Assembly (NCBI GenBank): GCA_963578705.1
Contig: CAUZDT010000001.1
Location: forward strand, 1-62,931
Origin: Candidatus Thalassarchaeaceae archaeon
Lineage (GTDB): Archaea; Thermoplasmatota; Poseidoniia; MGIII; CG-Epi1
Reading direction: 5' to 3'
Length of the DNA stretch: 62,931 nucleotides
Under the pieces are notes generated by a model. It worked only from the letters and a program-made list of their open reading frames with translations, was not told where the DNA came from and searched no databases. Each line of letters begins with the position of its first letter. The stretch's first letter is position 1. Positions 5,744 to 40,516 of the stretch are shown piece after piece. A program made the translations under genes and the position numbers.

Positions 5744-7369
5744 GTGGAAGCGGAGGAGGCGCTGCGCGCAGCCGCATTGCAGGAGGCGGCGCGGCATGGT
5801 GCGGCGCAGCCGAAGTCGGTGCTGGGGAAGGTGCTCGGCACGCACGCCGAACTGCGGCCGCAGGCGCGCGAACTCGGCGCGGTCGCCGAGCGCATCGTTG
5901 CCGAAGTGAACGCGCTCTCGCCGGCAGAAGTGGCAGCGCAGGCGCCCGCCCCGCCGGAGCCTCGCCAGGCGACTGACGGCGGCCGTACGGGGCTCCCGTC
6001 GCTCGAGGCCGACGGTGCGGTGGTACTGCGCTTCGCGCCCGGTCCGAGCGGGCCGCTGCACCTCGGCCATTCGCGCGCAGTGGCGCTGAACCACGCCTAC
6101 CGCGAACTGCACGATGGCAAGCTCATCCTGCGGCTGGAGGACACCAACCCGGCGGCGGTCGACCCCGGGGCGTACGACCTCATCACTGCCGATATGGAGT
6201 GGCTCGGCGCGACGCCCGACGAGACTGTCGTCCAGTCGGACCGGCTCGAGATTTACTACGGCGACGCCCGCGAGCTGCTGTCGCGCGGTGCGTCCTACGT
6301 TTGCCATTGCGACGCCGAGGAGTGGCGCGAGCTGAAGCGCCAGAGCACCGCCTGCCCCTGCCGCCCCGGCGAGCCTGAAGTGCAGCTGGCGGCGTTCGAA
6401 GCGCTGCTCGCGGGGGGCGACGGCATCGTCGTCGTGAAAACCGACCTCGAAGACCGGAACCCGGCGCTGCGCGACTTCGTCGCCTTGCGGGTCGCTGAAA
6501 CACCGCACCCGCGGCAGGGCGATGCGTGGCGGCTCTGGCCGACCTACAACTTCGCGGTCGCGGTCGACGATTACCGGCTCGGCGTGACGCACGTGCTGCG
6601 CGGCAAGGACCACCTCAACAACACGCAGCGCCAGCAGTGGGTCTACCGTCACCTCGGCTGGGACGAGCCGCAGTTCATCCACTACGGACTGGTCTCGATT
6701 CCCGGCACGTTGCTCAAGACCAGCACCATCCGCGAAGGCCTCACTGCTGGGAAATACTCAGACTGGGACGACCCCCGGCTCGCGACGCTGGCGGCGCTAC
6801 GGCGACGCGGCTACCAGCCGCAGGCCATCATGGATTACTGGGTTGCCGCCGGTGTCAAGGAGGCCGACATCACGCTCTCGTGGCAGAACCTGGAGGCGGC
6901 CAACCGCGCGCTCGTCGAGCCCGAAGCGAAGCGGCTTTTCTGGGTGCCGGAACCGGTCGAGCTGCTGCTCGACGCACCGCAACCACTGGAGAAGCGGGCG
7001 CCGTTCCACCCCGACCGTGACGAGATGGGCGAGCGACGCGAAACGGTCGCGCCCGGCGCGACCGTTTTGCTGCCGGCAGCCGACGTGCAGAAGCTGGCGG
7101 AGGGCGACCTGCTACGGCTCAAGAACTTGTGCAACTGCCGGCTGCGCGACGGCCGGCTCGAGCACGCCGGTGACGACCCCGTCAAGGGCGTGCCAATCGT
7201 CCAGTGGTGCGCTGCGGGCACACCGCTGCAGCTGCTGCGGCCGGACGGCTCGACGGCCGACGGAATCGCGGAGCCGGCGGCCGCGGAACTGGAAGGCGAA
7301 GTGGTGCAGTTCGAGCGGGTCGGCTTCGTCAGGTTGGAGCGAGGGCAAGCGCCGTTCCTGCATCGCTGA
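5744..7369 (+). CDS. gltX: Glutamyl-tRNA synthetase, archaeal/eukaryal type
   Basis: LRFAPGPSGPLHLGHSRAVALN (HIGH region), LRLEDTNP, VLRGKDHLNNTQRQ. Length 541 aa with the N-terminal helical segment typical of archaeal GluRS. Confidence 0.92.
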   Translation: MEAEEALRAAALQEAARHGAAQPKSVLGKVLGTHAELRPQARELGAVAERIVAEVNALSPAEVAAQAPAPPEPRQATDGGRTGLPSLEADGAVVLRFAPGPSGPLHLGHSRAVALNHAYRELHDGKLILRLEDTNPAAVDPGAYDLITADMEWLGATPDETVVQSDRLEIYYGDARELLSRGASYVCHCDAEEWRELKRQSTACPCRPGEPEVQLAAFEALLAGGDGIVVVKTDLEDRNPALRDFVALRVAETPHPRQGDAWRLWPTYNFAVAVDDYRLGVTHVLRGKDHLNNTQRQQWVYRHLGWDEPQFIHYGLVSIPGTLLKTSTIREGLTAGKYSDWDDPRLATLAALRRRGYQPQAIMDYWVAAGVKEADITLSWQNLEAANRALVEPEAKRLFWVPEPVELLLDAPQPLEKRAPFHPDRDEMGERRETVAPGATVLLPAADVQKLAEGDLLRLKNLCNCRLRDGRLEHAGDDPVKGVPIVQWCAAGTPLQLLRPDGSTADGIAEPAAAELEGEVVQFERVGFVRLERGQAPFLHR

Positions 7370-7440
7370 TTCGCTGACGACAGATATTTAAAAACAGGGG
7401 CACACTTTTAACCCCATACGCTTGCCGTCCCGGCAGGTAG

Positions 7441-9405
<1,965 letters not shown>

Positions 9406-9421
9406 GGCTGCTCCGGCGCGA

Positions 9422-12043
9422 CTAGCTATATTCCGCTTCCATCCGGGTCTTGTAGTCCATGACCAGGGCATGCGCCCCGTCAATATCGTTAATGGACAGG
9501 ACCACGAGGTCATTCTCCCGGGCCGAATCCAGGGCAAACTTCAGCGCATCCTTTTCATCGCGGAATGTAGTAATTGCTGATTCATCTACGCCGAATTTCA
9601 TAAGGTATTTTTTATATAAATCAACTATTTCTCCGGGTTTTCTTCCCCGCAGGTAATATTCGAAAACAATAATCTGGTCGAATCCCTCACTAAGGATTTT
9701 TGAACATAGTTCAAAATCTACTTCCCGTCTGTCTCCCGGCAGGGAAACCGTCACTATCCTCCGCTCCGCCGGCAGGGCCAGCGCGAAGTCCTTCAGGGCC
9801 TGATAACCCGCCTGATTATGGGCGTAATCAATCAGGACCTTGAATGTCAGCATATCCTCCAGCGTCGTTCTTCCCGGGGTCTGGGAATAGGAAGGGAAGA
9901 AAGTACTGATTCCCGCCTTGATATTGTCGTCGCTGATACCGAGGGCAAAGGTTGCACCGACAGCTGCCAGCGTGTTCATGATGTTGAAGGCCGCTTTTCC
10001 ATCGAACGTGATGGGGATGTCGGCCAGCGGCAGCAGGGGGTATTTCCAAGGGCCCTTGTAGATGCAGACCTGGTTGTCTTCCAGGACTATGGAAATACCA
10101 TTGTTTTTCTTGTGGTCTCGGATTATCTCGTTCCGTGGGTCCAGGCTGTAATAAATCGTTTCGCCGCTGACGTACCGTTCCATCCGGGCTACCAAGGGGT
10201 CATCAGCATTCAGGATTGCGTGGCCGTCTTTCCTGACTATTTGCGGGATGACGCTCTTGACCTGGGCGAGCTGTTTCAACGTATCAATGCCTTTCAGCCC
10301 CAGGTGGTCGGGAGAGATGTTCGTGACGACCCCCACGTTGCACTCCCGGTAGCCCAGCCCGGCCCGCAGGATGCCTCCGCGCGCGCACTCCAGGACCGCC
10401 GCGTCAATCGTCGGGTCAGACAGCACCAGCCCGTGCGACTTGGGGCCGGTCATGTCCCCGGGGTAGATCAGCCGGTTCTTGATGTAGACCCCTTCGGTGG
10501 TGCACATCCCGACCGTCGAGCCGGCTCCCTTCAGGATGTGGTTGATGAGCCGCGTGGTCGTGGTCTTGCCATTTGTCCCGGTCACCGCAACGATGGGAAT
10601 CGTAGAGCGGACTCCGGGCGGGAAGAGCATATCGATGACCGGCTCCGCCACGTTCCGCGCCAGCCCCGAAGTCGGCTGCAGGTGCATCCGGAAACCGGGG
10701 GCGGCATTGATTTCGACAATGCCGCCCCCGTTCTCGCTCAGCGTCGTCGTCAGGTCGGGCGCGATTATGTCGACGCCGCCGATGTCAAGCCCAATCAGCC
10801 GAATTGCTCGCTCGGCGATGTGGACGTTCGCCGGATGGACCTCGTCGGTGATGTCCACCGCCGTGCCGCCCGTCGAGAGATTTGCGGTGGTTTTCAGCGT
10901 CAGTATCTCGCCTTTCGGAAGCACTGACTTCAGGATGTAACCAGCGTCCTCGATTAGCCGCTCAGTCTGGTGGTCAACCGTGATTTCGGTCAGGACGTTC
11001 TCGTGCCCGTAACCCCGCAGCGGGTTCTCGTTCTCCCGGTCAATCAGTGCCTGCAGGGTATCCTTGCCGTTGCCGATGACGTGCGCCGGGACACGGTGAG
11101 CTGCCGCGACCATTTTGCCGTTGATGACCAGCACCCGGTAGTCATTCCCCGCCAGCGTTTTTTCGATGATGACCCACCCCTTCCGGGATTGTAATTTTGC
11201 GGCGTCAAACGCCGTGGCGAAATGCTCCAGGTTGTTGACGCCTACCGTCACACCCCGGCCGTGGTTTCCATCCAACGGCTTGACGACCAGCGGATACTCG
11301 ATTTTCCTGATTGATTTTTTCGCATCCTCGAATTTTCGCGTGACGATGCCCCGGGCAACGGGAATTCCGTGGTCCTCAAGGATTTTCTTGGTTTCCCATT
11401 TGTCTGCGGCGTAATCGACGGCGATGCTCGCCGTCCGGTCTGTCATGGTGGCGCGGATTTTGCGCTGCTGATTTCCATAACCCAGCTGGACAAAAGAGCC
11501 CCGGTTCAGGCGGATGTAGGGAATCCCCCGCCTCACCGCTTCCGCGACGATGGAACCGGTGCTGGGGCCCAGCTTGTATTTTTCCCGCAGTTCCTTCAGC
11601 TCCTGTATAGCGGCTTCAATGTCAAAGTCCTTTTTCTCTACGAGGTTTTCACAGAGTTCCACTGCCAGAATTCCTGCCCGTTTCCCGGCTTCGCCTACGA
11701 CATATGAATAGATTACATTGTACACCCCTCGTTCGCTGGTTTCACGGGTCCTGCCGAATCCAGTCTCCATCTCCGCCAGAGTCTGGAGCTCAAGTGCGAC
11801 ATGCTCGGCCACATGCCCCATCCAAGTCCCCTTCTTCACCCGCTGGAAAAACCCACCCTTCGAGCCGATACTGCAACGGTGGTCGTAGAGCGACGGCAAC
11901 GCCTTCTTCAGGCGACCGTAGAAGCCCCTGATCTTGTTGGTCGGCGTCTCCTCGAGTTCGCCAATATCCAGGACTAACTGGATGCAGGGCCGGCGGGTCC
12001 AGTAGTTGGGCCCTGAAAGCGTGCGTATTTCGCGGATTTTCAT
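9422..12043 (-). CDS. cphA: Cyanophycin synthetase (CphA1-like: N domain + ATP-grasp + Mur-ligase-like domain)
   Basis: 873 aa, starting MKIREIRTLSGPNYW.... ATP-grasp region (PLVVKPLDGNHGRGV). Mur-ligase P-loop (VAVTGTNGKTTTTRL) and DYAHN motif. Architecture and length are typical of CphA. Visibly AT-richer and Lys/Ile-richer than its neighbours. Confidence 0.9.
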   Translation of the reverse strand: MKIREIRTLSGPNYWTRRPCIQLVLDIGELEETPTNKIRGFYGRLKKALPSLYDHRCSIGSKGGFFQRVKKGTWMGHVAEHVALELQTLAEMETGFGRTRETSERGVYNVIYSYVVGEAGKRAGILAVELCENLVEKKDFDIEAAIQELKELREKYKLGPSTGSIVAEAVRRGIPYIRLNRGSFVQLGYGNQQRKIRATMTDRTASIAVDYAADKWETKKILEDHGIPVARGIVTRKFEDAKKSIRKIEYPLVVKPLDGNHGRGVTVGVNNLEHFATAFDAAKLQSRKGWVIIEKTLAGNDYRVLVINGKMVAAAHRVPAHVIGNGKDTLQALIDRENENPLRGYGHENVLTEITVDHQTERLIEDAGYILKSVLPKGEILTLKTTANLSTGGTAVDITDEVHPANVHIAERAIRLIGLDIGGVDIIAPDLTTTLSENGGGIVEINAAPGFRMHLQPTSGLARNVAEPVIDMLFPPGVRSTIPIVAVTGTNGKTTTTRLINHILKGAGSTVGMCTTEGVYIKNRLIYPGDMTGPKSHGLVLSDPTIDAAVLECARGGILRAGLGYRECNVGVVTNISPDHLGLKGIDTLKQLAQVKSVIPQIVRKDGHAILNADDPLVARMERYVSGETIYYSLDPRNEIIRDHKKNNGISIVLEDNQVCIYKGPWKYPLLPLADIPITFDGKAAFNIMNTLAAVGATFALGISDDNIKAGISTFFPSYSQTPGRTTLEDMLTFKVLIDYAHNQAGYQALKDFALALPAERRIVTVSLPGDRREVDFELCSKILSEGFDQIIVFEYYLRGRKPGEIVDLYKKYLMKFGVDESAITTFRDEKDALKFALDSARENDLVVLSINDIDGAHALVMDYKTRMEAEYS

Positions 12044-12888
12044 TGGACCACTTCTTCGGCCGGTATCGCGATTTCTTCCCCGATATCCTCGTTCCGGATG
12101 GGTGTCTTCGTGGCGAAGTCGAAACCATCCCCGTCAGCCAGGACATGCATCATCAGCCCGAAAATCGAAATCGGTTTTCCCGCATGGCCATCGGCATAGC
12201 TGGAATAGGCCACTCCGCCCCCATCCAGGACCGTGACGGTCCCCCTTCCCATGACCGAAGCGACCGTACCGTTCTCGATGTAGAGTGCCGTATTTTCATC
12301 GATGCCCACGCCAAGATTCCGGGGATGCGACATGACCGCTGCCGCCAGCCTGTAAATCCGGTCCCGTTGCCTGAAATGCTGGTCGATTATCACGTCCTGG
12401 ATTAGCCCCAATCCTGCCGAAAGGCGAATTGATTTCCGGCGTGAATAGGTGAAAGGCATCCCACCGGCAACCATGACCGAGCTCATAATTGACGCGCCGG
12501 CGCTGGTCCCTCCCGTCGGAATCCCCTTCCGGAACTGCCTTGCGAGCGCCGCTTCCAGCCGGGTGCCGCCGATGGTGGCGGCCACTTTCACCTGGTTACC
12601 TCCCGAAATGAAAATCCCGGTGGCTTGCTTGATTAGCTCTATCGCCTCGGCCGAGTTGGCTTCCTCCCGCGACAGGATCGGAAGCACCTTGACCGAAGCA
12701 GCACCCATTCCGAAAAATATCTTCTGGTATTTTTCGCCGGTTTTCAGCGGGACCTGACTGGCGCAGGTGATGAGGGTGATGCGGCTCTGGGCGCCTCCGC
12801 ACAAGTCGAAGAAAAAGCGCAGGAGCCGGGCCCCCCGACCCTTTTTTTCGGCTCCGCCAATAACGAAAAGTTTCGTGGTTTCAGGCAT
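12040..12888 (-). CDS. cphB: Cyanophycinase (peptidase S51)
   Basis: 282 aa with LFVIGGAEKK, FISGGNQ and catalytic-Ser block GGTSAGASIM, typical of CphB/S51. Its stop overlaps the cphA start by 4 nt. Confidence 0.88.
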   Translation of the reverse strand: MPETTKLFVIGGAEKKGRGARLLRFFFDLCGGAQSRITLITCASQVPLKTGEKYQKIFFGMGAASVKVLPILSREEANSAEAIELIKQATGIFISGGNQVKVAATIGGTRLEAALARQFRKGIPTGGTSAGASIMSSVMVAGGMPFTYSRRKSIRLSAGLGLIQDVIIDQHFRQRDRIYRLAAAVMSHPRNLGVGIDENTALYIENGTVASVMGRGTVTVLDGGGVAYSSYADGHAGKPISIFGLMMHVLADGDGFDFATKTPIRNEDIGEEIAIPAEEVVQ

Positions 12889-12949
12889 GTTATGTTACGC
12901 TCGGCTGCGCGGAGTGATAATAGCCGCAGCCCACTATAAATCATAATAG

Positions 12950-13750
12950 TCAAGTTCCAATTTTAAACTCGGAAAGCAGCCCCCGCACGGTCGCAACTGC
13001 CGAGAGCGCCGCCAGGTGCGAAGTGCGCGGGTTGCGCAGGCTGGGCCGGTTTTCGACCTCGACGCGCATGCGGCCAAAGTCGCCCGCGACCGTGATTGTG
13101 TGGGTGTTGCGCTCCGCGTCCGGGTCGACGACGATGCGCACGCGCGTGCCTTCGGCGCCGAGCCCCGCCAGCCCCAGCGTCGCGGCGATATTGACGTTCT
13201 GTGGGAAGCGGCGGCACGCCTCGGCGGCGGTCCCGTCGAAGATGGTGCGCGGTTTGCGGATGCGCGCCAGCGCGCCGTTTTCCCACGCTTCGGTGCCCTC
13301 GAACATGCGCGGTGGCTTGCGCGTCTCCAGTTCGACGCGGCGCAGGTTGCCGACCTGCGCTGACTTTAGCCCGTCAAGCCCGGCGATGGCGCCCGACGGG
13401 ACGTGGAAGCGGCTGCCGCCCTTCTTCGCTGCGCGCTCGAGAGCGCGCAGCACCGATGGTTCGGTGAGCGCGCCGACCGACATCACGACCAGTTCGCAGC
13501 CCGCCTCGAGCACGGCGGGGCCGCGTGACCGCAGCGCGCCCTGTGATGCCGCCTCGACGACGACCTCGACTTCGTCGAGCATCGCGCCGAAGCTGGGGAC
13601 GCAAGTCACCTTGTCCATCGTGCGCGCCAGTTCGCGAGCGCGGGTGCGGGCGCGGTCCCAGATGATGATTTCACTGACGCCCGGCTCCGCCTGCAGGAAG
13701 CGCGCCAGCGTCGAGCCGATTGAGCCGCAGCCAATCAGCCCGAGTCGCAC
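12950..13750 (-). CDS. nadX: L-aspartate dehydrogenase
   Basis: MRLGLIGCGSIGSTL Rossmann start, SGAIAGLDGLKSA and NIAATL blocks, about 266 aa, as in NadX (Thermotoga/Archaeoglobus type). Confidence 0.8.
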   Translation of the reverse strand: MRLGLIGCGSIGSTLARFLQAEPGVSEIIIWDRARTRARELARTMDKVTCVPSFGAMLDEVEVVVEAASQGALRSRGPAVLEAGCELVVMSVGALTEPSVLRALERAAKKGGSRFHVPSGAIAGLDGLKSAQVGNLRRVELETRKPPRMFEGTEAWENGALARIRKPRTIFDGTAAEACRRFPQNVNIAATLGLAGLGAEGTRVRIVVDPDAERNTHTITVAGDFGRMRVEVENRPSLRNPRTSHLAALSAVATVRGLLSEFKIGT

Positions 13751-14829
13751 AGCCGCTCCATCACGCGCGGGAAATGCTCGGCGAACCGCTCGACCTCAGG
13801 TGTCGGCAGTGAAAAGGAGACGCGCACAAAGCGGTCGCCGAATCGTGCCGAAACATAATTCCCGGCCCGGATGAAAATCTGGTGGTCGTAGAGCAGTGCG
13901 TCCTGCACCACCTGCGGCGAAACCCCGCAATCGGCGATGTCGATGACCATCATGTTGGCTGCCGACGGGTAGACCGGCAGGTGCGCGCCGTCGACAGCGT
14001 CGACGGCGCGCTTGATAATGGCCTGATTGTGGCTGCAGATTTCGATGTTGCGCGACAGCCATTCCGGTTTCGTTTCGAGTGCGGCAATCGCGGCGCGCTG
14101 GCCGATGATTGAAATCCCCAAGTCGGAGACCATACTGCCGACGATGTCGTCGATGAACTCCTGCGGCGCCACCAGCGCCCCCACGCGCAGCCCCGCCAGG
14201 CCGCAGTTCTTGCTCACCGAGTAGGCGATGACCGTGCGCTCTGGCGCGAACTCGGTCGCGAGCGTATGCTCCGGCGCGAAGTCGCGGTAGGTGATGTCAT
14301 CGATAATCCACAGGTCGTGCTCGTGCGCGATTTCGCACAGCGCCCGCACCTCCTCGCGCGGGTAGGTCGAGCCGAGCGGGTTGAGCGGGTCAATCAGCAG
14401 GATGCTCTTCGTCTCGGGCGTAATCGCGGCCCGGACCGCGTCCAGGTCGAAGCGGCAGGTGCCGCCGTAAATCGGCAGGTCGGTGCACTCGGCGCCGCCC
14501 ATTTTCGCGAATTTGTGGATGATGAAGTAGGACGGGTCCGACGTAATCATGCGGCTCCCTGCCGGCTGCAGGTAGCGCATCAGGCAGTACAGGGCTTCGG
14601 TGCCGCCGTTGGTGAGGTGCATCCCGAAGTCTGGCAGGCCCAAATCCTCCAGGATGAGTTCGCGCAGCCGCGGCAGCCCCTCCACGAGCGGATACTTGTT
14701 GAACTCGTGGCTGGCAGCCGAGTCGCGGATTGCCTCTTCGATGGCGGGATGCGTCGGCAGATGGTTGGTGTTCTGCGCCATCCAGACGATGTCGTCGCGA
14801 CCGTGCGCATACGCGAAGTCATCGCTCAT
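13735..14829 (-). CDS. Pyridoxal-phosphate-dependent aminotransferase, class I/II (aspartate aminotransferase-like)
   Basis: 364 aa. SVSKNCGLAGLRVG (PLP-Lys block), NPLNPLGSTY, DDITYRDF. Overlaps the nadX start by 16 nt (same strand, operon-like). Confidence 0.8.
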   Translation of the reverse strand: MSDDFAYAHGRDDIVWMAQNTNHLPTHPAIEEAIRDSAASHEFNKYPLVEGLPRLRELILEDLGLPDFGMHLTNGGTEALYCLMRYLQPAGSRMITSDPSYFIIHKFAKMGGAECTDLPIYGGTCRFDLDAVRAAITPETKSILLIDPLNPLGSTYPREEVRALCEIAHEHDLWIIDDITYRDFAPEHTLATEFAPERTVIAYSVSKNCGLAGLRVGALVAPQEFIDDIVGSMVSDLGISIIGQRAAIAALETKPEWLSRNIEICSHNQAIIKRAVDAVDGAHLPVYPSAANMMVIDIADCGVSPQVVQDALLYDHQIFIRAGNYVSARFGDRFVRVSFSLPTPEVERFAEHFPRVMERLCDSG

Positions 14830-20214: not shown

Positions 20215-20348
20215 CAAATGCTGACGCTGGGCGCACTACATCACAATGTTGTTTCCGTCAAGCAACCGGCCGTCGGCGCAGGTTGCGCCCCGGGCGGAGT
20301 GAGGAGGTTTTGCGAGCGCCGCCGCCTGAGGCCGCTCGGAAAAGGTTG

Positions 20349-20469
<121 letters not shown>

Positions 20470-27958: not shown

Positions 27959-28762
27959 CTACGCCGCCAAGTGTTCCTGCGCCGCCTCGGCCAGCGCGTT
28001 GAAGAGCTCTTCATCATCAACCGATTCGTAGCCGCCGCCCTTGGCAAAGTGCAGGATATCCACCTCGAGCACATCCTCGCCGTCTTCGGCGGGTGACATC
28101 ACCGCATACTCTTCGCCCTCAACCTCGAGCGTGCCGTGGACCCGGAAGCGGTGTTCCCTGCCTTCGGAGTCAGTCAGCACTTCGATGTCGCCGGCATCGG
28201 GCGTTGCGGGAGCGTCTGCCGCAGCTTTGCTGCCGCCCATGAACGGAAGGCTCCAGCCACCTGCGGTGTCGGCGACGCTGATTTCGCGTCCCATCGCTTC
28301 CGACCAGCCGCTGATAATCGCTTCCTGGTCGAATCCCGAGCTGGCTTCAAGCTTGGTCCAGTTGTTGATGGCCCAGGGCGGTTTCTCGAACTTGTCGGCC
28401 AGCAGTCGCAGGAACATGCGCAGGTCGTTGGGGTTGGCGGTCCCGATTTTCAGCTGGAGATAGCAGTTACGCGGGACGCCGTAGAAGCCCTTGTATTTCT
28501 GCGCTGAAAGTCGCGCCTTGAAACCGGCGAAGCGGAACGCGGCGGTCCAGTTCATTTCGTCGAAGCCGCTCTCGCGCAGTTTCACCTTCGCTTCCGCGTC
28601 GATTTCCTGCGCACAAGTCCAGAACTGTTCGAAGAAATCGGTCAGCCAGACCAGTCCGAAAGTGCCTCGGCCAACTATTTCAAGCTGCCCCTTCAGCAGT
28701 AGCTTGCGCTTTGCCAGCGGGTGTTTCTGTCGAGGCTGCGCCAGTAATGTCACGACGTGCAT
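27959..28762 (-). CDS. Hypothetical protein with C-terminal DUF1292-like acidic domain
   Basis: 267 aa. The N-terminal about 170 aa have no recognisable motif. The C-terminal segment IEVLTDSEGREHRFRVHGTLEVEGEEYAVMSPAEDGEDVLEVDILHF...YESVDDEELFNAL follows the DUF1292 pattern. Confidence 0.55.
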   Translation of the reverse strand: MHVVTLLAQPRQKHPLAKRKLLLKGQLEIVGRGTFGLVWLTDFFEQFWTCAQEIDAEAKVKLRESGFDEMNWTAAFRFAGFKARLSAQKYKGFYGVPRNCYLQLKIGTANPNDLRMFLRLLADKFEKPPWAINNWTKLEASSGFDQEAIISGWSEAMGREISVADTAGGWSLPFMGGSKAAADAPATPDAGDIEVLTDSEGREHRFRVHGTLEVEGEEYAVMSPAEDGEDVLEVDILHFAKGGGYESVDDEELFNALAEAAQEHLAA

Positions 28763-28954
28763 TGCGCCGGCAGCATGGGGCTGGATAAAATGGCTCCGTC
28801 GCGGACCGCCAGCTTTAATTAGGTCCCTGTACCGGCCGGGCCGGCCTGCGGGCCATTACGGTAATCACTTTATCGACTCTCAACAAAGAGTCCAGGACCA
28901 GACGTTCGGACTTGTTTGAGAGGGGCTCAGGCCGCACAAGCAAAAGGTGGAAAA

Positions 28955-30262
28955 ATGACAGACCCCAACAGTAGTAAGTACGTTATCCAAGCCAGAATCA
29001 CGGCCAACGGCGTGGTTGAGCGATCCGACGTAGTCGGTGCAATCTTCGGTCAGACCGAAGGATTGCTCGGCGACGAACTGGACCTCCGGGACATGCAGAA
29101 ATCGGGCCGTATGGGCCGGATTGAAGTGGACATCAAGAGTAGCAATGGCAAGTCGATTGGCGAAATTACCATAGCCTCCAGTATGGACCAGGTGGAGACT
29201 TCGGTCTTCGCCGCCGCGCTCGAGACAGTCGAGCGCGTCGGTCCCTGCAAGGCGACCCTCAAGGTAAACACCCTCGAAGACAGCCGTGCCGGCAAGCGTG
29301 ACCAGATTATTGAGCGCGCCCGCGAGCTGCTGCTCGGCATCGTGACCGAGTCCCGCAGCGCCGGAGTCAACATTACCGACTCCGTCAGGCAGCTAATCCA
29401 GACCGATGAAATCGTCACCTATGGTGGCAAGCTCCCCGCGGGCCCCAACGTTGAGAAAAGCGACGCCATCATCCTGGTCGAGGGACGCAGCGACGTCCTG
29501 AACCTGCTGCGGCACAGCATCAAGAACGCTATCTCTGTCGAGGGGACCAATATCCCCAAGGAGATTGTCGAGCTCTGCAAGTCGCGCACCGTCACCGCTT
29601 TCGTCGATGGCGACCGCGGCGGCGAGATGATCCTGCGCGAGCTGTTCCAAGTCGCCGAGATTAATTATGTCGCGCGCGCACCAACCAACATCGAAGTCGA
29701 ACACCTCGGGCACAAGCAGATTATGAAGTGCCTGCGCGACAAGTCGACTACCGAGCTGTTCAAGGACCAGAACAAGTGGGCGCAAGATGGCAAGAAAAAG
29801 CGCTCGCGACGTGGCGGACGCAAGTCGAAGGCCAGCAAGGACACGAAAGCGCCCGCAGAGGCGCCAGCCGCTGAGCCCTCGGCAGCGGCGGAAGAGCCCG
29901 CGGCCCTGGCTGAGGCGCCTGCAGAGGAGCCAGCCGCTGAGCCAGAGGCAGTCAAGGCTGCCGCCCCCGCAGAAGCACAGGCGCTGCTCGAGCACCTTGA
30001 CGCGCTCAAGGGCAGCAAGAACGTGCGGCTGCTCTCGGGCGAGAAGCTGAGCGACGAACTCCCGATTACCAAGCTGCAGGAAAAGCTGCAGAAGAAGGGA
30101 AACAACGGCGTCACAGTACTGGTGATGGACGGTATCATCACTCAGCGGCTGGTCGACCTCGCCCCCGAGGCAGGTATCTCGACCGTCGTTGCCGAGAAGA
30201 AGGGACCACTGCCGCGGCAGCCGGTCGGCCTCTCACTCTACACCCGTAGCGACCTTAGCTAA
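28955..30262 (+). CDS. dnaG: Archaeal DNA primase DnaG (TOPRIM domain protein)
   Basis: KYVIQARITANGVVERSDVVGAIFGQTEGLLG N-terminus. TOPRIM (IILVEGRSDVLNLL...TAFVDGDRGGEMILREL). ATG 28955 is preceded by AAAAGGTGG (SD-like). An Ala/Glu/Pro low-complexity insertion precedes the C-terminal domain. Confidence 0.92.
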   Translation: MTDPNSSKYVIQARITANGVVERSDVVGAIFGQTEGLLGDELDLRDMQKSGRMGRIEVDIKSSNGKSIGEITIASSMDQVETSVFAAALETVERVGPCKATLKVNTLEDSRAGKRDQIIERARELLLGIVTESRSAGVNITDSVRQLIQTDEIVTYGGKLPAGPNVEKSDAIILVEGRSDVLNLLRHSIKNAISVEGTNIPKEIVELCKSRTVTAFVDGDRGGEMILRELFQVAEINYVARAPTNIEVEHLGHKQIMKCLRDKSTTELFKDQNKWAQDGKKKRSRRGGRKSKASKDTKAPAEAPAAEPSAAAEEPAALAEAPAEEPAAEPEAVKAAAPAEAQALLEHLDALKGSKNVRLLSGEKLSDELPITKLQEKLQKKGNNGVTVLVMDGIITQRLVDLAPEAGISTVVAEKKGPLPRQPVGLSLYTRSDLS

Positions 30263-35739: not shown

Positions 35740-35830
35740 ACTATTAATATAAGGCTGGTTGACAACCGCCGGTTGCCTACCGGGTCTCATTGTAGCTCCC
35801 GAGGGTAACCCAGCAAAAATGGTGAAAAAA

Positions 35831-36097
35831 ATGACAGTCGGAATTGGCCCCTTGGGCGAGATGGTCCTGCTCGAGCTGGAGGAAGCCGCGGAGAAGACAG
35901 ATAGCGGTTTCCTGCTGCCCGAAGCAGCGCGCGAAAAGATGAACGTCGGCCTCGTGGCAGGCGTCGGCCCTGACGCAGAACACGTCAAGGCGGGCGACCG
36001 CGTGGTCTATAAGAAATATGCCGGGACGGAGATTACCTGGCAGGACAAGGATTACCTACTCCTCAAGTCGAAAGACTTGCAGGCGAAGGTGCTTTAG
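35831..36097 (+). CDS. groES: Co-chaperonin GroES (Cpn10)
   Basis: [44 protein letters not shown]...[14 protein letters not shown] follows the GroES pattern. ATG 35831 is preceded by GGTGA plus a 5-nt spacer. ATG 35819 is an alternative. Confidence 0.88.
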
Positions 36098-37774
<1,677 letters not shown>

Positions 37775-37831: not shown

Positions 37832-38482
37832 CTATGATAGTCTGATTTTCGACAGGTAGTCAGGCATCTCGATATCGCTTGCCAGCCCCGCTGCCGGCTC
37901 TGGCTCGCCAAGGCCGGTCATGATTGGGACCACCCCGGCCCAGACCGGCTGATCCCGGTCTGCCGGTTCGTCACCGACGGGGATAGCACGAATCTTGGCT
38001 GCGCCTTCCCGGATATCCATCCAGAGCACGCTAGTCGCTTTCAGTTCCGACTCAGTCGGCTGGCGCACTTCGCCCCAGCGGCCGCGTGCGATGCGCTCCA
38101 TGAGCTTCTCAAGCGCCAGCAGTTTTTCCCCGGAGTCATCAACGCTCCGGGCCGTCCCAAAAAGCATCACCGAGCGGTAGTTGACCGAGTGGTTAAAAGC
38201 CGAGCGCGACAGCACGATGCCGTCGAGCAGGCTCACAGTCAGGCAGACCCTGCACTCCGCTTGCGTCCGCAATGCCCGGCTGGCGGCGGAGCCGTGCCAG
38301 AAAACGCGCTCACCATCGCGCCAGAAAAGCGTCGGCGTCACCAGCGGCGCGCCGTCGAGCACATACCCGACGTGGCAGAGCAGCGCTGCGTCCAGGATGG
38401 CGTTGACCGTCACGCGGTCGAAGCTGCCGCGTTCGGAGTGCCGCATGGGCTGGCTGCGGCCGGTCCGCTCGAGGTCAGCCAC
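37832..38482 (-). CDS. Pyridoxamine 5'-phosphate oxidase-related FMN-binding protein (Pyridox_ox_2-like)
   Basis: RHSERGSFDRVTVNAILDAALLCHVGYVLDGAPLVTPTLFWRDGERVFWHGSAASR matches the flavin-nucleotide-binding split-barrel family pattern. Confidence 0.7.
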   Translation of the reverse strand: MADLERTGRSQPMRHSERGSFDRVTVNAILDAALLCHVGYVLDGAPLVTPTLFWRDGERVFWHGSAASRALRTQAECRVCLTVSLLDGIVLSRSAFNHSVNYRSVMLFGTARSVDDSGEKLLALEKLMERIARGRWGEVRQPTESELKATSVLWMDIREGAAKIRAIPVGDEPADRDQPVWAGVVPIMTGLGEPEPAAGLASDIEMPDYLSKIRLS

Positions 38483-38951
38483 GCTGCGCTTTCAGCTCCG
38501 CCAGCACCTTCGCCGCGTGCCCCTTGGCGCGTACGTTGGGCCACGCTCGCGCGACCGTGCCGTCAGGGGCCACGAGGAAGGTCGAGCGCGCGACGCCCAT
38601 GTATTCGCGGCCGTAGTTCTTCTTCAGTCGCCATGCCCCGTAAGGCGCCATCACCGCACGGTCCGGGTCGGCGAGCAGGCGCACGCCGAGGCCGTATTTC
38701 GCGATGAAGTTGCAGTGCTTCTGCGGCGAATCGGGTGAGACACCGACGATGTTGCACTCGAGCGCTGCAAACTCGGCGGCGAGCGCCGTGAATTCCTGCG
38801 CCTCGATGGTGCAACCCGGCGTATCATCGCGCGGATAGAAGTAGAGCAGTAGCCAGCGGTCGGCGAAGTCGGCCAGCGCAACGGCCGTACCGTCCTGGTC
38901 AACCGCTTCAAAGCGGGGTGCAGGGTCTCCAGCTTGTAGGATTTCAGTCAT
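38475..38951 (-). CDS. bcp: Thioredoxin-dependent thiol peroxidase (Bcp/PrxQ peroxiredoxin)
   Basis: From ATG 38951: AGDPAPRFEAVDQDG, LLYFYPRDDTPGCTIEA (peroxidatic Cys). About 158 aa. Confidence 0.9.
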   Translation of the reverse strand: MTEILQAGDPAPRFEAVDQDGTAVALADFADRWLLLYFYPRDDTPGCTIEAQEFTALAAEFAALECNIVGVSPDSPQKHCNFIAKYGLGVRLLADPDRAVMAPYGAWRLKKNYGREYMGVARSTFLVAPDGTVARAWPNVRAKGHAAKVLAELKAQRG

Positions 38952-38971
38952 ATTTTTCACATCGATGAGTA

Positions 38972-40516
38972 TTAAAGTGGAATGTTGCCGTGCTTGCGCT
39001 TCGGGCACGGTTCGCGCTTGCTCCCAAAGCGCTCGAGCCCGCGCAGCAGTTCAACGCGCGTATCGCGCGGGAAAATGACGCGGTCGATGTACCCCATTTC
39101 GGCGGCAATCCAGGGCGACGCGAACTTCTCGCGATACTCTTCGGTCAGCTCGCGCCGCTTCCGGTCGGGGTCGCTGGCGGCGGCCAGTTCCTTGCGGAAG
39201 ATGATATTCACTGCCCCCTCGGAGCCCATCACCGCGATTTCAGCGGTCGGCCACGCCAGGTTCAGGTCGGCACGGATGTGCTTGGACGCCATCACGTCAT
39301 ACGCGCCGCCGTACGCCTTGCGCGTTATCACCGTCAGCTTCGGGACGGTCGCCTCGGCGAAGGCGTAGAGCAGCTTGGCACCGTGGCGGATGATGCCGCC
39401 ATGCTCCTGCTCGCGCCCCGGCAGGAAGCCGGGGACGTCGACTAATGTAATGAGGGGCAGGTTGAACGCGTCGCAGAATCGCACGAAGCGCGCCCCCTTC
39501 ACCGACGCGTCGATGTCGAGACAGCCCGCTAGGTGTTGCGGCTGGTTGGCGACGATGCCGACCGGGCAGCCGCCGAGGCGCGCGAAGCCGATAACCAGGT
39601 TCTGCGCCCAGTCTGGCTGAAGCTCGAGAAAATCCTCCTCGTCGGCGACTGCCGTGATGATGTCGCGGATGTCGTAAGGGGTATTCGGGTTGTCGGGCAT
39701 CAGCGCGTCGAGTTGCGGTAGCACTTCGTCGCCTGACGGGGATTCCCGCCGTGGCGGCTGCTCGAGATTGTTCTGCGGCAGGAATGCGAGCAGCCGCCTC
39801 AGTTCGGCGAAGGCGGCTTGCTCGTCGGCCGCGGTCAAGTGCGCGACGCCCGAGAGCGACGAGTGGGTCTGCGCGCCGCCCAGTTCCTCGAAACCGATTT
39901 CCTCGTGCGTCACCGTCTTGATGACGTCGGGTCCGGTGATGAACATGTGCGAAGTGCCTTCGGCCATGATGACGAAGTCGGTCATTGCCGGGCTGTAGAC
40001 TGCGCCGCCGGCGCACGCCCCCAGAATCAGGGAGATTTGCGGGACGACTCCCGACAACTGGACGTTGCGCCAGAAAATCTCGGCGTAGCCCCCGAGCGAG
40101 ACGACGCCTTCCTGGATGCGCGCGCCGCCCGAGTCGTTGAGCCCGATGACCGGCGCCCCCATGCGCGTCGCGAGGTCCATCACCTTACAAATCTTCTTGG
40201 CGTGCACTTCCCCCAGCGCGCCGCCGAAGACCGTAAAATCCTGCGCGAAGAGATAGACGGGCCGTCCCTCGATGGTGCCGTGGCCCGTGACGACTCCGTC
40301 GCCGGGCGGCCGCCGCTTCTCCATCCCGAAGCCCGCCGTGCGGTGCTTCGCCAGCGCGTCCAGCTCGACGAAGCTGCCGTCGTCGAGCAGCGCCTCCATC
40401 CGCTCGCGCGCGGTGAGCTTGCCCCGCGCGTGTTGCTTCTCGACTCGCGCCGCGTCGGAGCGCTGCGCTTCCGCCAGCCGCTGCTCCAGCTCCTCGATGC
40501 GCTCGCGGGTCGTCAT
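38972..40516 (-). CDS. Acyl-CoA carboxylase carboxyltransferase subunit (propionyl-CoA carboxylase beta / methylmalonyl-CoA carboxyltransferase 12S type)
   Basis: From ATG 40516: RIEELEQR...[62 protein letters not shown]. 514 aa. The 146-codon 5' extension in the ORF track was rejected. Confidence 0.9.

Follow-up and report, generated by a model that had tools for sequence, protein, structure and literature searches.

A probable cyanophycin operon of bacterial origin in marine Poseidoniia archaea

Can an archaeon make cyanophycin, the nitrogen-storage polymer multi-L-arginyl-poly-L-aspartate, and from where would it have obtained the genes? This question is raised by a 62,931-nucleotide (nt) stretch of DNA from Candidatus Thalassarchaeaceae archaeon (contig CAUZDT010000001.1; this whole stretch is hereafter the window), in which an initial annotation had noticed a cphB–cphA pair, encoding a cyanophycinase and a cyanophycin synthetase. 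A survey of the Mur family described CphA as specific to bacteria (10.1101/2022.11.30.518518), and the main genome-wide census of cyanophycin genes was confined to bacterial genomes in RefSeq (PMC10206079). Culexarchaeia and some Euryarchaeota and Asgard archaea have cyanophycinase homologues, for which scavenging of external cyanophycin was proposed, and according to the same paper archaeal cyanophycin degradation has barely been discussed (PMC9723716). From the analyses described below, we give a probability of about three in four to the reading that cphB–cphA1 is a functional cyanophycin operon of bacterial origin, which has become a fixed module in marine Poseidoniia (Marine Groups II and III; MGII/MGIII).

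We compared the predicted synthetase with family profiles and solved structures. CphA scored 1165.8 bits against the cyanophycin synthetase equivalog TIGR02068 (cut-off 850) and 1135.6 bits against NF010623 (cut-off 877), the latter covering residues 1–867. Its domains were assigned as PF18921 (Cyanophycin_syn N; 23–136), RimK/ATP-grasp (212–447), Mur_ligase_M (487–697) and Mur_ligase_C (734–849), and the protein aligned colinearly from end to end (residues 1–854) with CphA1 of Synechocystis (7LG5; 867 bits). The residues of SuCphA1 with experimentally shown importance are C59/H79/E82/H83, H267 and D585/H586 (PMC9262961). We observed that C57, H77, E80 and H81 of the window protein correspond to the first group and make up a complete Cx19HxxEH zinc-peptidase motif (as defined in PMC9262961) in the N domain (CSIGSKGGFFQRVKKGTWMGHVAEH, residues 57–81), that H267 corresponds to H261 in KPLDGNHGRG of the G domain, and that D585/H586 correspond to D579-H580 in NISPDHLG of the M domain, which also has the P-loop GTNGKT at 489. 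Six related copies keep the same catalytic residues and P-loop. Compared with CphA1 of Synechocystis sp. UTEX2470 (7LG5/7TXU), a primer-independent cyanophycin synthetase 1, the window protein has the same length class, the same N–G–M architecture and all of the named motifs. However, it is archaeal and diverged, its relatives outside its own clade being at best 63–66% identical, and its activity, its oligomeric state and the substrates that it accepts are predictions.

The product of cphB matched the cyanophycinase equivalog TIGR02069 with 254.8 bits (cut-off 126.6) as well as PF03575 (Peptidase_S51), and reached only 32 bits against the PepE model, whose cut-off is 156. Among the solved cyanophycinases it matched 7UQV (E 4e-52) and 3EN0 (E 1e-50); for both CphA1 and CphB, the identity to solved structures is enough to settle the fold. 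Ser129 (in GTSAGA), His171 (DQHF), Glu198 (GIDE) and Arg175/177/180 were present in all the archaeal copies. We take the corresponding residues of 3EN0 to be the triad S132/H174/E201 and R178/R180/R183 of the published structure, mapped via a 20-residue tag offset. Like 3EN0 (Synechocystis) and 7UQV/7UQW, the window protein has the Ser-His-Glu triad and, in the segment DQHF..R.R..R, the Arg cluster, although the identity is only ∼40%. The CphB clade to which it belongs sits on a long branch, and no other cyanophycinase found exceeds 47% identity to it. The absence of a secretion signal sets intracellular CphB apart from extracellular CphE, and by eye the N-terminus (MPETTKLFVIGGAE; MPETTKLFVIGGAEKKGRGARLL) had no hydrophobic signal-peptide stretch. 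The conserved start of cphB is MP(E/K)TTKLF. At one homologous locus (L120; loci other than the window carry L numbers here), a 301-aa cyanophycinase call (346–1251) is an artefact of open reading frame (ORF) calling: the ATG within the conserved upstream element (CTATCATGATT) falls in frame there, and the same ATG is out of frame in the window.

The two genes and their surroundings are listed in Table 1. As read from the window sequence, the start of cphA1 and the stop of cphB share 4 nt (ATGA). In bacteria, cphA and cphB are clustered in 81% of the genomes that have both (PMC10206079). The initial annotation had described a cphB–cphA operon with a 4-nt overlap, an 873-aa CphA and an S51 protein with the GGTSAGA motif, wedged between gyrB and nadX; the ORFs are exactly so, the motif was found in CphB, and profile matches confirmed both flanking genes. 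gyrB is convergent with cphA1, their stop codons being separated by the 16-nt junction. On the strand of the operon, nadX precedes cphB and itself overlaps by 16 nt the aminotransferase gene upstream of it (13735..14829). The G+C content at third codon positions (GC3) was 0.86 for gyrB and 0.85 for nadX.

Table 1. Features of the cphB–cphA1 locus, in window coordinates
Feature	Position	Strand	Description
gyrB	7444..9405	+	NF011501, NF004189 and TIGR01059 all above cut-off; host flank outside the module
gyrB stop/cphA stop junction	9406..9421	.	16 nt; probable deletion scar
cphA1	9422..12043	-	ORF, 873 aa; N domain, ATP-grasp (G) and Mur-ligase-like (M)
cphB	12040..12888	-	ORF, 282 aa; cyanophycinase, probably of intracellular type, S51 serine peptidase
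61-nt upstream element	12889..12949	-	putative promoter region; directly after the nadX stop codon
nadX	12950..13750	-	L-aspartate dehydrogenase; TIGR03855 231.6 bits (cut-off 206.55), PF01958; host-composition flank

We examined whose chromosome carries this operon. Among its housekeeping genes, the window has those for an archaeal-type GltX, the ribosomal proteins S12, S7 and S10, aEF-2, aEF-1alpha, a GGGP synthase (PcrB) and a DnaG-type primase. In an exact-sequence look-up, the 90% clusters of GyrB, GltX, NadX, CphA and CphB bore the names Poseidoniia, Poseidoniales, Marine Group III and unclassified Methanobacteriota, and their members came from marine water-column and hydrothermal-plume metagenomes, Tara among them. 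These housekeeping genes and cluster names indicate that the host is archaeal, in agreement with the earlier view, and by them it is an uncultured planktonic Thermoplasmatota archaeon of high G+C content (65.5%) from the MGII/MGIII radiation. The window also has a lone 5S rRNA gene (20348–20468, minus strand), and no 16S or 23S rRNA gene was seen across its 63 kb.

Next, we compared the composition of the operon with that of the 39 other window genes of at least 150 aa (41 genes together with cphA and cphB). The G+C content was 0.569 for cphA (z −2.5) and 0.582 for cphB (z −2.1) as against 0.662 ± 0.037, and GC3 was 0.717 (z −2.7) and 0.689 (z −3.3) as against 0.840 ± 0.045. The synonymous-codon likelihoods, −1.09 for cphA and −1.18 for cphB, were the lowest two among the 41 genes (−0.868 ± 0.082 for the others); overall, the z-scores of the two genes ranged from −2.1 to −3.8. 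The tetranucleotide deviation peaked in the 3.5-kb segment starting at 9501 (0.402 versus 0.189 ± 0.047 over the 63 kb). In composition cphA and cphB are the two most deviant genes of the window, in keeping with the initial annotation, although its spot G+C values of 32–65% were unrepresentative, the island mean being 57–58%. It had further described the proteins as rich in Lys and Ile where the neighbours use Arg, Ala and Val. We observed that Ile (8.4% in cphA and 8.9% in cphB versus 4.5%) and Lys (6.2% and 4.6% versus 3.4%) are indeed enriched and that Ala is lower, whereas Arg and Val do not differ from the other genes.

The contig has a second bacterial-looking, AT-richer pair, Cpn10/GroES (35759–36097, plus strand) and Cpn60/GroEL (36107–37774, plus strand), with G+C contents of 0.57/0.61 and GC3 of 0.68/0.79, under the window norm of 0.84. 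A DUF1292-containing protein (27959–28762, minus strand) and a DnaG-like Toprim protein (28916–30262, plus strand) have a GC3 of 0.75, and local G+C falls to 0.59 there; this GC3 is near the bottom of the remaining genes, with only a 177-aa gene at 38475–39008 being lower (0.74).

To place the operon phylogenetically, we ranked 8000 homologues of CphA by identity. Archaeal copies occupied the range from 100% to 90%, followed by a tier at 84%, after which identity dropped to 63–66%; by the names in the genome scan, this last tier was entirely Marinimicrobia/Neomarinimicrobiota. The nearest non-archaeal CphA (84%; group P0012/P0013) belongs to the loci L029 and L002, on a 38%-GC contig. The L029-type contig has bacterial beta-oxidation genes and a TetR regulator, and its FadE was 85–87% identical to Marinimicrobia-named proteins, the next tier, at ∼61%, being likewise Marinimicrobia. 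In this contig type cphA has a G+C content of 0.40 and a GC3 of 0.33, which is the native composition. A neighbour-joining (NJ) tree with 200 bootstraps united the archaea and the L029 type in a clade at 100%, placed this clade as sister to the other Marinimicrobia at 100%, and recovered all the archaeal CphA copies as monophyletic at 96%. After masking of the GC-sensitive residues (GARP/FYMINK), the clade of archaea and L029 persisted at 99.5%, its internal order being unresolved. Another group at 84% CphA identity, P0014, had been a candidate for Marinimicrobia; this assignment was rejected as these are mid-GC Poseidoniia, and two of their loci, L112 and L116, carry the archaeal 5′ element described below.

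The Marinimicrobia operon (L029/L002; CAZSIH010000052.1) likewise has cphB first and a 4-nt overlap, and its products are 84% (CphA) and 68–70% (CphB) identical to those of the archaea. In contrast to it, the archaeal copies have their own conserved 61-nt upstream element, a higher, host-tracking G+C content and archaeal chromosomal contexts; purifying selection also acts on them, whereas the operon is being lost from some strains of the donor type. Signs of this decay were seen at two loci: cphA of L002 (2540–4780) is without ∼130 N-terminal codons, and in L119 (2066–3139; compare L029 3605–7285) a 3.7-kb deletion takes the 3′ part of cphB and the whole of cphA.

The nesting of the archaeal CphA within Marinimicrobia, together with its native composition in the 38%-GC contig, supports a transfer from bacteria, namely Marinimicrobia, to archaea. 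As the sister group is wholly Marinimicrobia, transfer in this direction would take one event and the reverse would take two; a single Marinimicrobia-to-archaea transfer is therefore the most parsimonious reading. The nested position, the atypical composition in the recipient and an empty syntenic site in a relative (see below) are all indicative of horizontal gene transfer, so the horizontal acquisition postulated at the outset stood, and the NJ tree and CphA identities also named the donor clade that it had left open. The locus nevertheless does not qualify as a classical mobile genomic island: no integrase domain was found among the window ORFs in a Pfam scan, flanking direct or inverted repeats, sought as integration scars, were absent from the 16-nt junction and the 61-nt element, and no tRNA gene lies beside the operon, the nearest being >9 kb off. 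These three negatives agree with what had been noted before.

We observed the operon in at least three archaeal lineages. Lineage A (host GC 0.65; CphA identity 92–100%) comprises the window, L113–115 and L121–125, and has nadX on the left and gyrB on the right; in some of its strains (L111, L117 and L118) a 204-aa HlyIII gene lies between the operon and gyrB. In lineage B (host GC ∼0.51; L120 and L110; CphA 90%), the left neighbour is a gene with a geranylgeranyl reductase-like C-terminus and the right neighbour is a different gene. In lineage C (host GC 0.45–0.50; L112 and L116; CphA 84%), a cation-efflux or GNAT gene is on the left and small ORFs are on the right. L116 encodes a zinc-ribbon protein identical to a protein of a Poseidoniia metagenome-assembled genome, which makes this locus archaeal.

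How long has the operon been in place? Synteny in L001/L113-115 (CphA 92%) is identical to that of the window. L113 and the window have identities of 92% in CphA and CphB, 95% in GyrB, 92.5% in NadX and 95% in the aminotransferase, and the synonymous divergence (dS) of the flanks is 0.22–0.36; the island has thus diverged in step with its flanks. Since it is shared at the same site between species with diverged flanks, the island would have been in place before these species split. The dS of cphA in this pair (0.58) is above the flank dS, which fits with ongoing directional change. In L030 and L031 (GyrB 73% identical; GC 0.36), gyrB is directly convergent with the aminotransferase gene, and nadX and cphBA are both missing, so we consider this an empty site. 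These two loci were the only useful ones in a metagenome scan with GyrB as query, which was unspecific because the back-translated motifs were too conserved: 78 of the 80 loci were from unrelated organisms (51–59% identity, several of them human-gut or fermentation). The absence of nadX beside that of cphBA in this low-GC Poseidoniia relative (L030 7001–10966, L031 354–3112) is an observation in its own right; nadX itself may have been inserted there separately and at an earlier time.

The G+C content of cphBA follows that of the host, from 0.40 in Marinimicrobia through 0.49–0.51 in mid-GC archaea to 0.57–0.59 in high-GC archaea, and a lag behind the host is confined to the high-GC lineage. 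Across the copies of donor type, intermediate GC and high GC, amelioration can be seen in progress. If the donor was L029-like, the window copy is about three-quarters ameliorated, its GC3 having moved from 0.33 to 0.72 with the host at 0.84. Comparison among archaeal copies gave ratios of nonsynonymous to synonymous divergence (dN/dS) of 0.06–0.09 for cphA and 0.11–0.17 for cphB, alongside 0.07–0.11 for gyrB and 0.17–0.24 for nadX. With 147 members in its 90% cluster, CphB is as common as the core genes gyrB (130), nadX (128) and gltX (111). The acquisition had originally been called relatively recent. This is not borne out: the same site is occupied in relatives with flank dS of 0.2–0.36, GC3 has shifted from 0.33 to 0.72, purifying selection is strong, and the module is present in at least two further Poseidoniia lineages.

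Two observations concern the gyrB side of the locus. Between the window (5744–9405) and L117 (7727–11182), dS is 0.33 for gyrB, but 0.15–0.17 for nadX, the aminotransferase gene and cphA; beyond gyrB, the window has gltX and L117 has a different gene, for UDP-glucose dehydrogenase. The discordant dS and the differing gene suggest a recombination or rearrangement breakpoint.

The boundaries of the module were informative at both ends. At the 5′ end, the homology of the window to contexts B and C (L112, L116 and L120) begins exactly at the nadX stop codon (12950), and the 61-nt element is common to contexts A (window), B (L120/L110) and C (L112/L116). Its order is CTATTATGATTTATAGTGG ... GCTATTAT ... 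TCCGCG ... CGTAACATA, of which TCCGCG and CGTAACATA are conserved. Of the six archaeal copies aligned, four (window, L113, L117 and L112) have the 19-nt CTATTATGATTTATAGTGG unchanged; L120 has one mismatch (CTATCATG...), and the 66-nt stretch used for L116 lacks the first base of the string. The element contains two CTATTAT boxes 26 nt apart, with TTTATA ∼45 nt and TATTAT ∼30 nt upstream of the ATG. It is near-invariant, though the dS of cphB and cphA between the window (lineage A) and lineage C is >1 (saturated), and its conservation does not extend to L029, the Marinimicrobia contig. The idea that this leader forms a riboswitch or another structured RNA was dropped: no Rfam match was obtained at E ≤ 1, and a GGCTGCG/CGCAGCC hairpin of the window leader is not conserved in lineages B and C.

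At the 3′ end, the 16-nt junction of the window recurs in L113 and L114 with one mismatch. L111, L117 and L118 have at the same site a ∼118-nt spacer and the HlyIII gene, and over its first ∼75 nt this spacer shows homology to the sequence that follows cphA in L110, where the operon has other neighbours. These ∼75 nt after the cphA stop, common to L117 and L110, include the A/T-rich AAATTTCTTTAATAA stretch. As this 3′ element of the module itself is missing from the window, the window-type junction is probably a deletion derivative. The HlyIII genes (L111 10631–11245, L117 7080–7694 and L118 3880–4494) have a GC3 of 0.77, and the cphA beside them is 97% identical to that of the window; the HlyIII 90% cluster has 147 members, and the hlyIII-bearing form may be the commoner one. 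Co-transfer of hlyIII from Marinimicrobia was rejected, the HlyIII proteins of L111/L117 and L029 being only 32% identical.

It is likely that the system, if functional, works along conventional lines. CphA1 would use ATP to polymerise Asp and Arg: its G domain (ATP-grasp) would lengthen the poly-Asp backbone, and its Mur-ligase-like M domain would link Arg to every Asp side chain. The N domain would hold the polymer and should cut its own primers, and the enzyme is predicted to be primer-independent because this domain has the complete metallopeptidase motif. CphB, as a cytoplasmic Ser-His-Glu peptidase of family S51, would convert the granule to beta-Asp-Arg dipeptides, which would then be split by an isoaspartyl dipeptidase that must be encoded elsewhere. 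Through the ATGA overlap, cphB and cphA1 would be translationally coupled, and both would be transcribed from the A+T-rich 61-nt element with its TATA-like boxes. As to history, we envisage a Marinimicrobia (SAR406) lineage of the dark ocean as the donor and one acquisition as the source of the archaeal copies, which may later have spread or been rearranged among several Poseidoniia lineages; the tree and the shared 5′ element make a single archaeal acquisition the favoured, though not proven, reading. In the high-GC lineage, the module would have landed between nadX and gyrB and then been inherited vertically, with amelioration still ongoing, and the window lineage would have lost by deletion the 3′ element of the module and, compared with its sister strains, the adjacent hlyIII. 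The likely role is storage of nitrogen, carbon and arginine in a particle-associated, feast-and-famine heterotroph. The adjoining aspartate dehydrogenase and aminotransferase genes are suggestive for such a role, but they are host genes.

Four other explanations were weighed. An assembly or binning chimera, in which a bacterial fragment was joined to an archaeal contig, might be suspected from the abrupt dip in composition over 3.5 kb and from the very short junctions (16 and 61 nt). However, we found the window CphA, exactly or as a one-residue variant, on contigs of five assemblies that were made independently, from different samples and with different pipelines (ENA ERZ27247708, ERZ27247711 and ERZ27247714; JGI 3300031811; Logan SRR9039920), which were 99.7–100% identical to the window over 6–14.6 kb and had both junction sequences exact. 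As the five repeat both junctions, the contig is not chimeric. In addition, a species ∼90% identical at the DNA level has the same order, aminotransferase-nadX-cphB-cphA-gyrB, in three further assemblies, and the GC3 of 0.72 is far off the bacterial 0.33, which leaves this explanation practically without weight. The operon might instead be an ancient, vertically inherited archaeal trait whose composition came from gene-specific constraints. In favour of this, the archaeal copies form a clade that has several sub-lineages and keeps its synteny, and CphB clusters lie at 96, 82–87 and 76% identity, of which the largest three (those at 96, 82 and 76%) have ∼140–148 members each. This clade is, however, shallow and nested in a bacterial phylum, with 84% amino-acid identity to a bacterial protein, and the site is empty in L030 and L031. 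Synonymous sites also deviate (GC3 and codon likelihood), and cphBA tracks the host G+C content, lagging only in the high-GC lineage. We regard ancient inheritance as very improbable.

The other two explanations concern direction and use. The L029-type Marinimicrobia could have received the operon from Poseidoniia, or both from an unsampled third donor. In keeping with this, CphA identities among lineage A, lineage C and the L029 type are nearly equal (81–87%), the masked tree does not order the branches inside their clade, the operon is decaying in some L029-type strains (the truncation in L002 and the deletion in L119), and the long CphB branch of the clade has nothing closer than 47%. Such a history is nevertheless doubtful: the entirely Marinimicrobia sister group would demand two transfers instead of one, the FadE tiers (85–87% and ∼61%) parallel the CphA tiers (84% and 64%), which fits vertical descent within the Marinimicrobia phylum, cphBA fits the composition of its contig in L029 but stands out as foreign in the window, and L029 does not have the archaeal 5′ element. 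Finally, the operon might be kept for another use: CphB might serve to scavenge cyanophycin from outside, or CphA might make a variant polymer, rich in Lys or with another cationic side chain. Scavenging has been proposed for Culexarchaeia and some other archaea, which have cyanophycinase alone (PMC9723716), substrate specificity is not readable from sequence, and no dipeptidase was seen in the window. Against such a use, CphA is the more constrained of the two proteins (dN/dS 0.06–0.09) and has its three active sites intact, and a CphB with no signal peptide by eye, translationally coupled to cphA, is the usual storage-type arrangement; we consider another use unlikely.

Having preferred a functional operon of Marinimicrobia origin, we also note several points that weigh against it. 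The isoaspartyl dipeptidase (IaaA, IadA or CphZ-like) was not found among the 46 window ORFs in the Pfam scan, which agrees with the initial annotation; many cphA1-bearing bacteria are likewise without a recognisable dipeptidase (PMC10206079). Function is deduced from homology, motifs and purifying selection, and in the closest pair (window versus L117) the dN/dS of cphB was 0.43, calculated from few substitutions. The trees were built by the NJ method alone, and archaeal monophyly fell to a bootstrap of 41.5% after GARP/FYMINK masking. The direct donor could be an unsampled lineage, and the taxonomy of lineages B and C comes from one exact protein match and cluster names. The 61-nt element may be the archaeal promoter or operator of the module, a role proposed from its TATA-like boxes.

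How much of this is new? Public records already carry the names 'cyanophycin synthetase [Candidatus Poseidoniia archaeon]' (MDP7590310.1 and MCH2417289.1) and 'Marine Group III euryarchaeote' (UniRef100_A0A7C8DID3). Because these automatic GenBank/UniProt annotations exist, the gene calls, like the type of system, are already known; the recognition, the origin and the population-level fixation are new. The literature searched gave no paper tying cyanophycin to MGII/MGIII or Marinimicrobia genomes and none on archaeal synthesis, in line with the initial annotation, which was aware of no characterised case in archaea. The cyanophycinases of Culexarchaeia, Euryarchaeota and Asgard archaea (PMC9723716) resemble the present one in having an archaeal host and belonging to family S51. 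Those stand alone, whereas the Poseidoniia operon adds a complete synthetase coupled to the peptidase, which implies endogenous synthesis.

Taken a step further, we lean, with moderate confidence, towards the view that several meso- and bathypelagic Poseidoniia (MGII/MGIII) make and mobilise cyanophycin through a Marinimicrobia-derived cphBA, which has its own archaeal promoter and has spread as a unit. The operon contradicts the stated limit of CphA to bacteria, although the expected biochemistry is conventional. If the view is true, this would be the first cyanophycin production in Archaea, and the dark-ocean microbial loop would contain an unconsidered reservoir of nitrogen and arginine. 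Present across many marine metagenomes, the Poseidoniia operon would extend cyanophycin to the third domain of life and illustrate cleanly a transfer across domains between Marinimicrobia and Poseidoniia, which occur together in the dark ocean. It also suggests that these abundant, uncultured heterotrophs may buffer their nitrogen and arginine supply between particle encounters.

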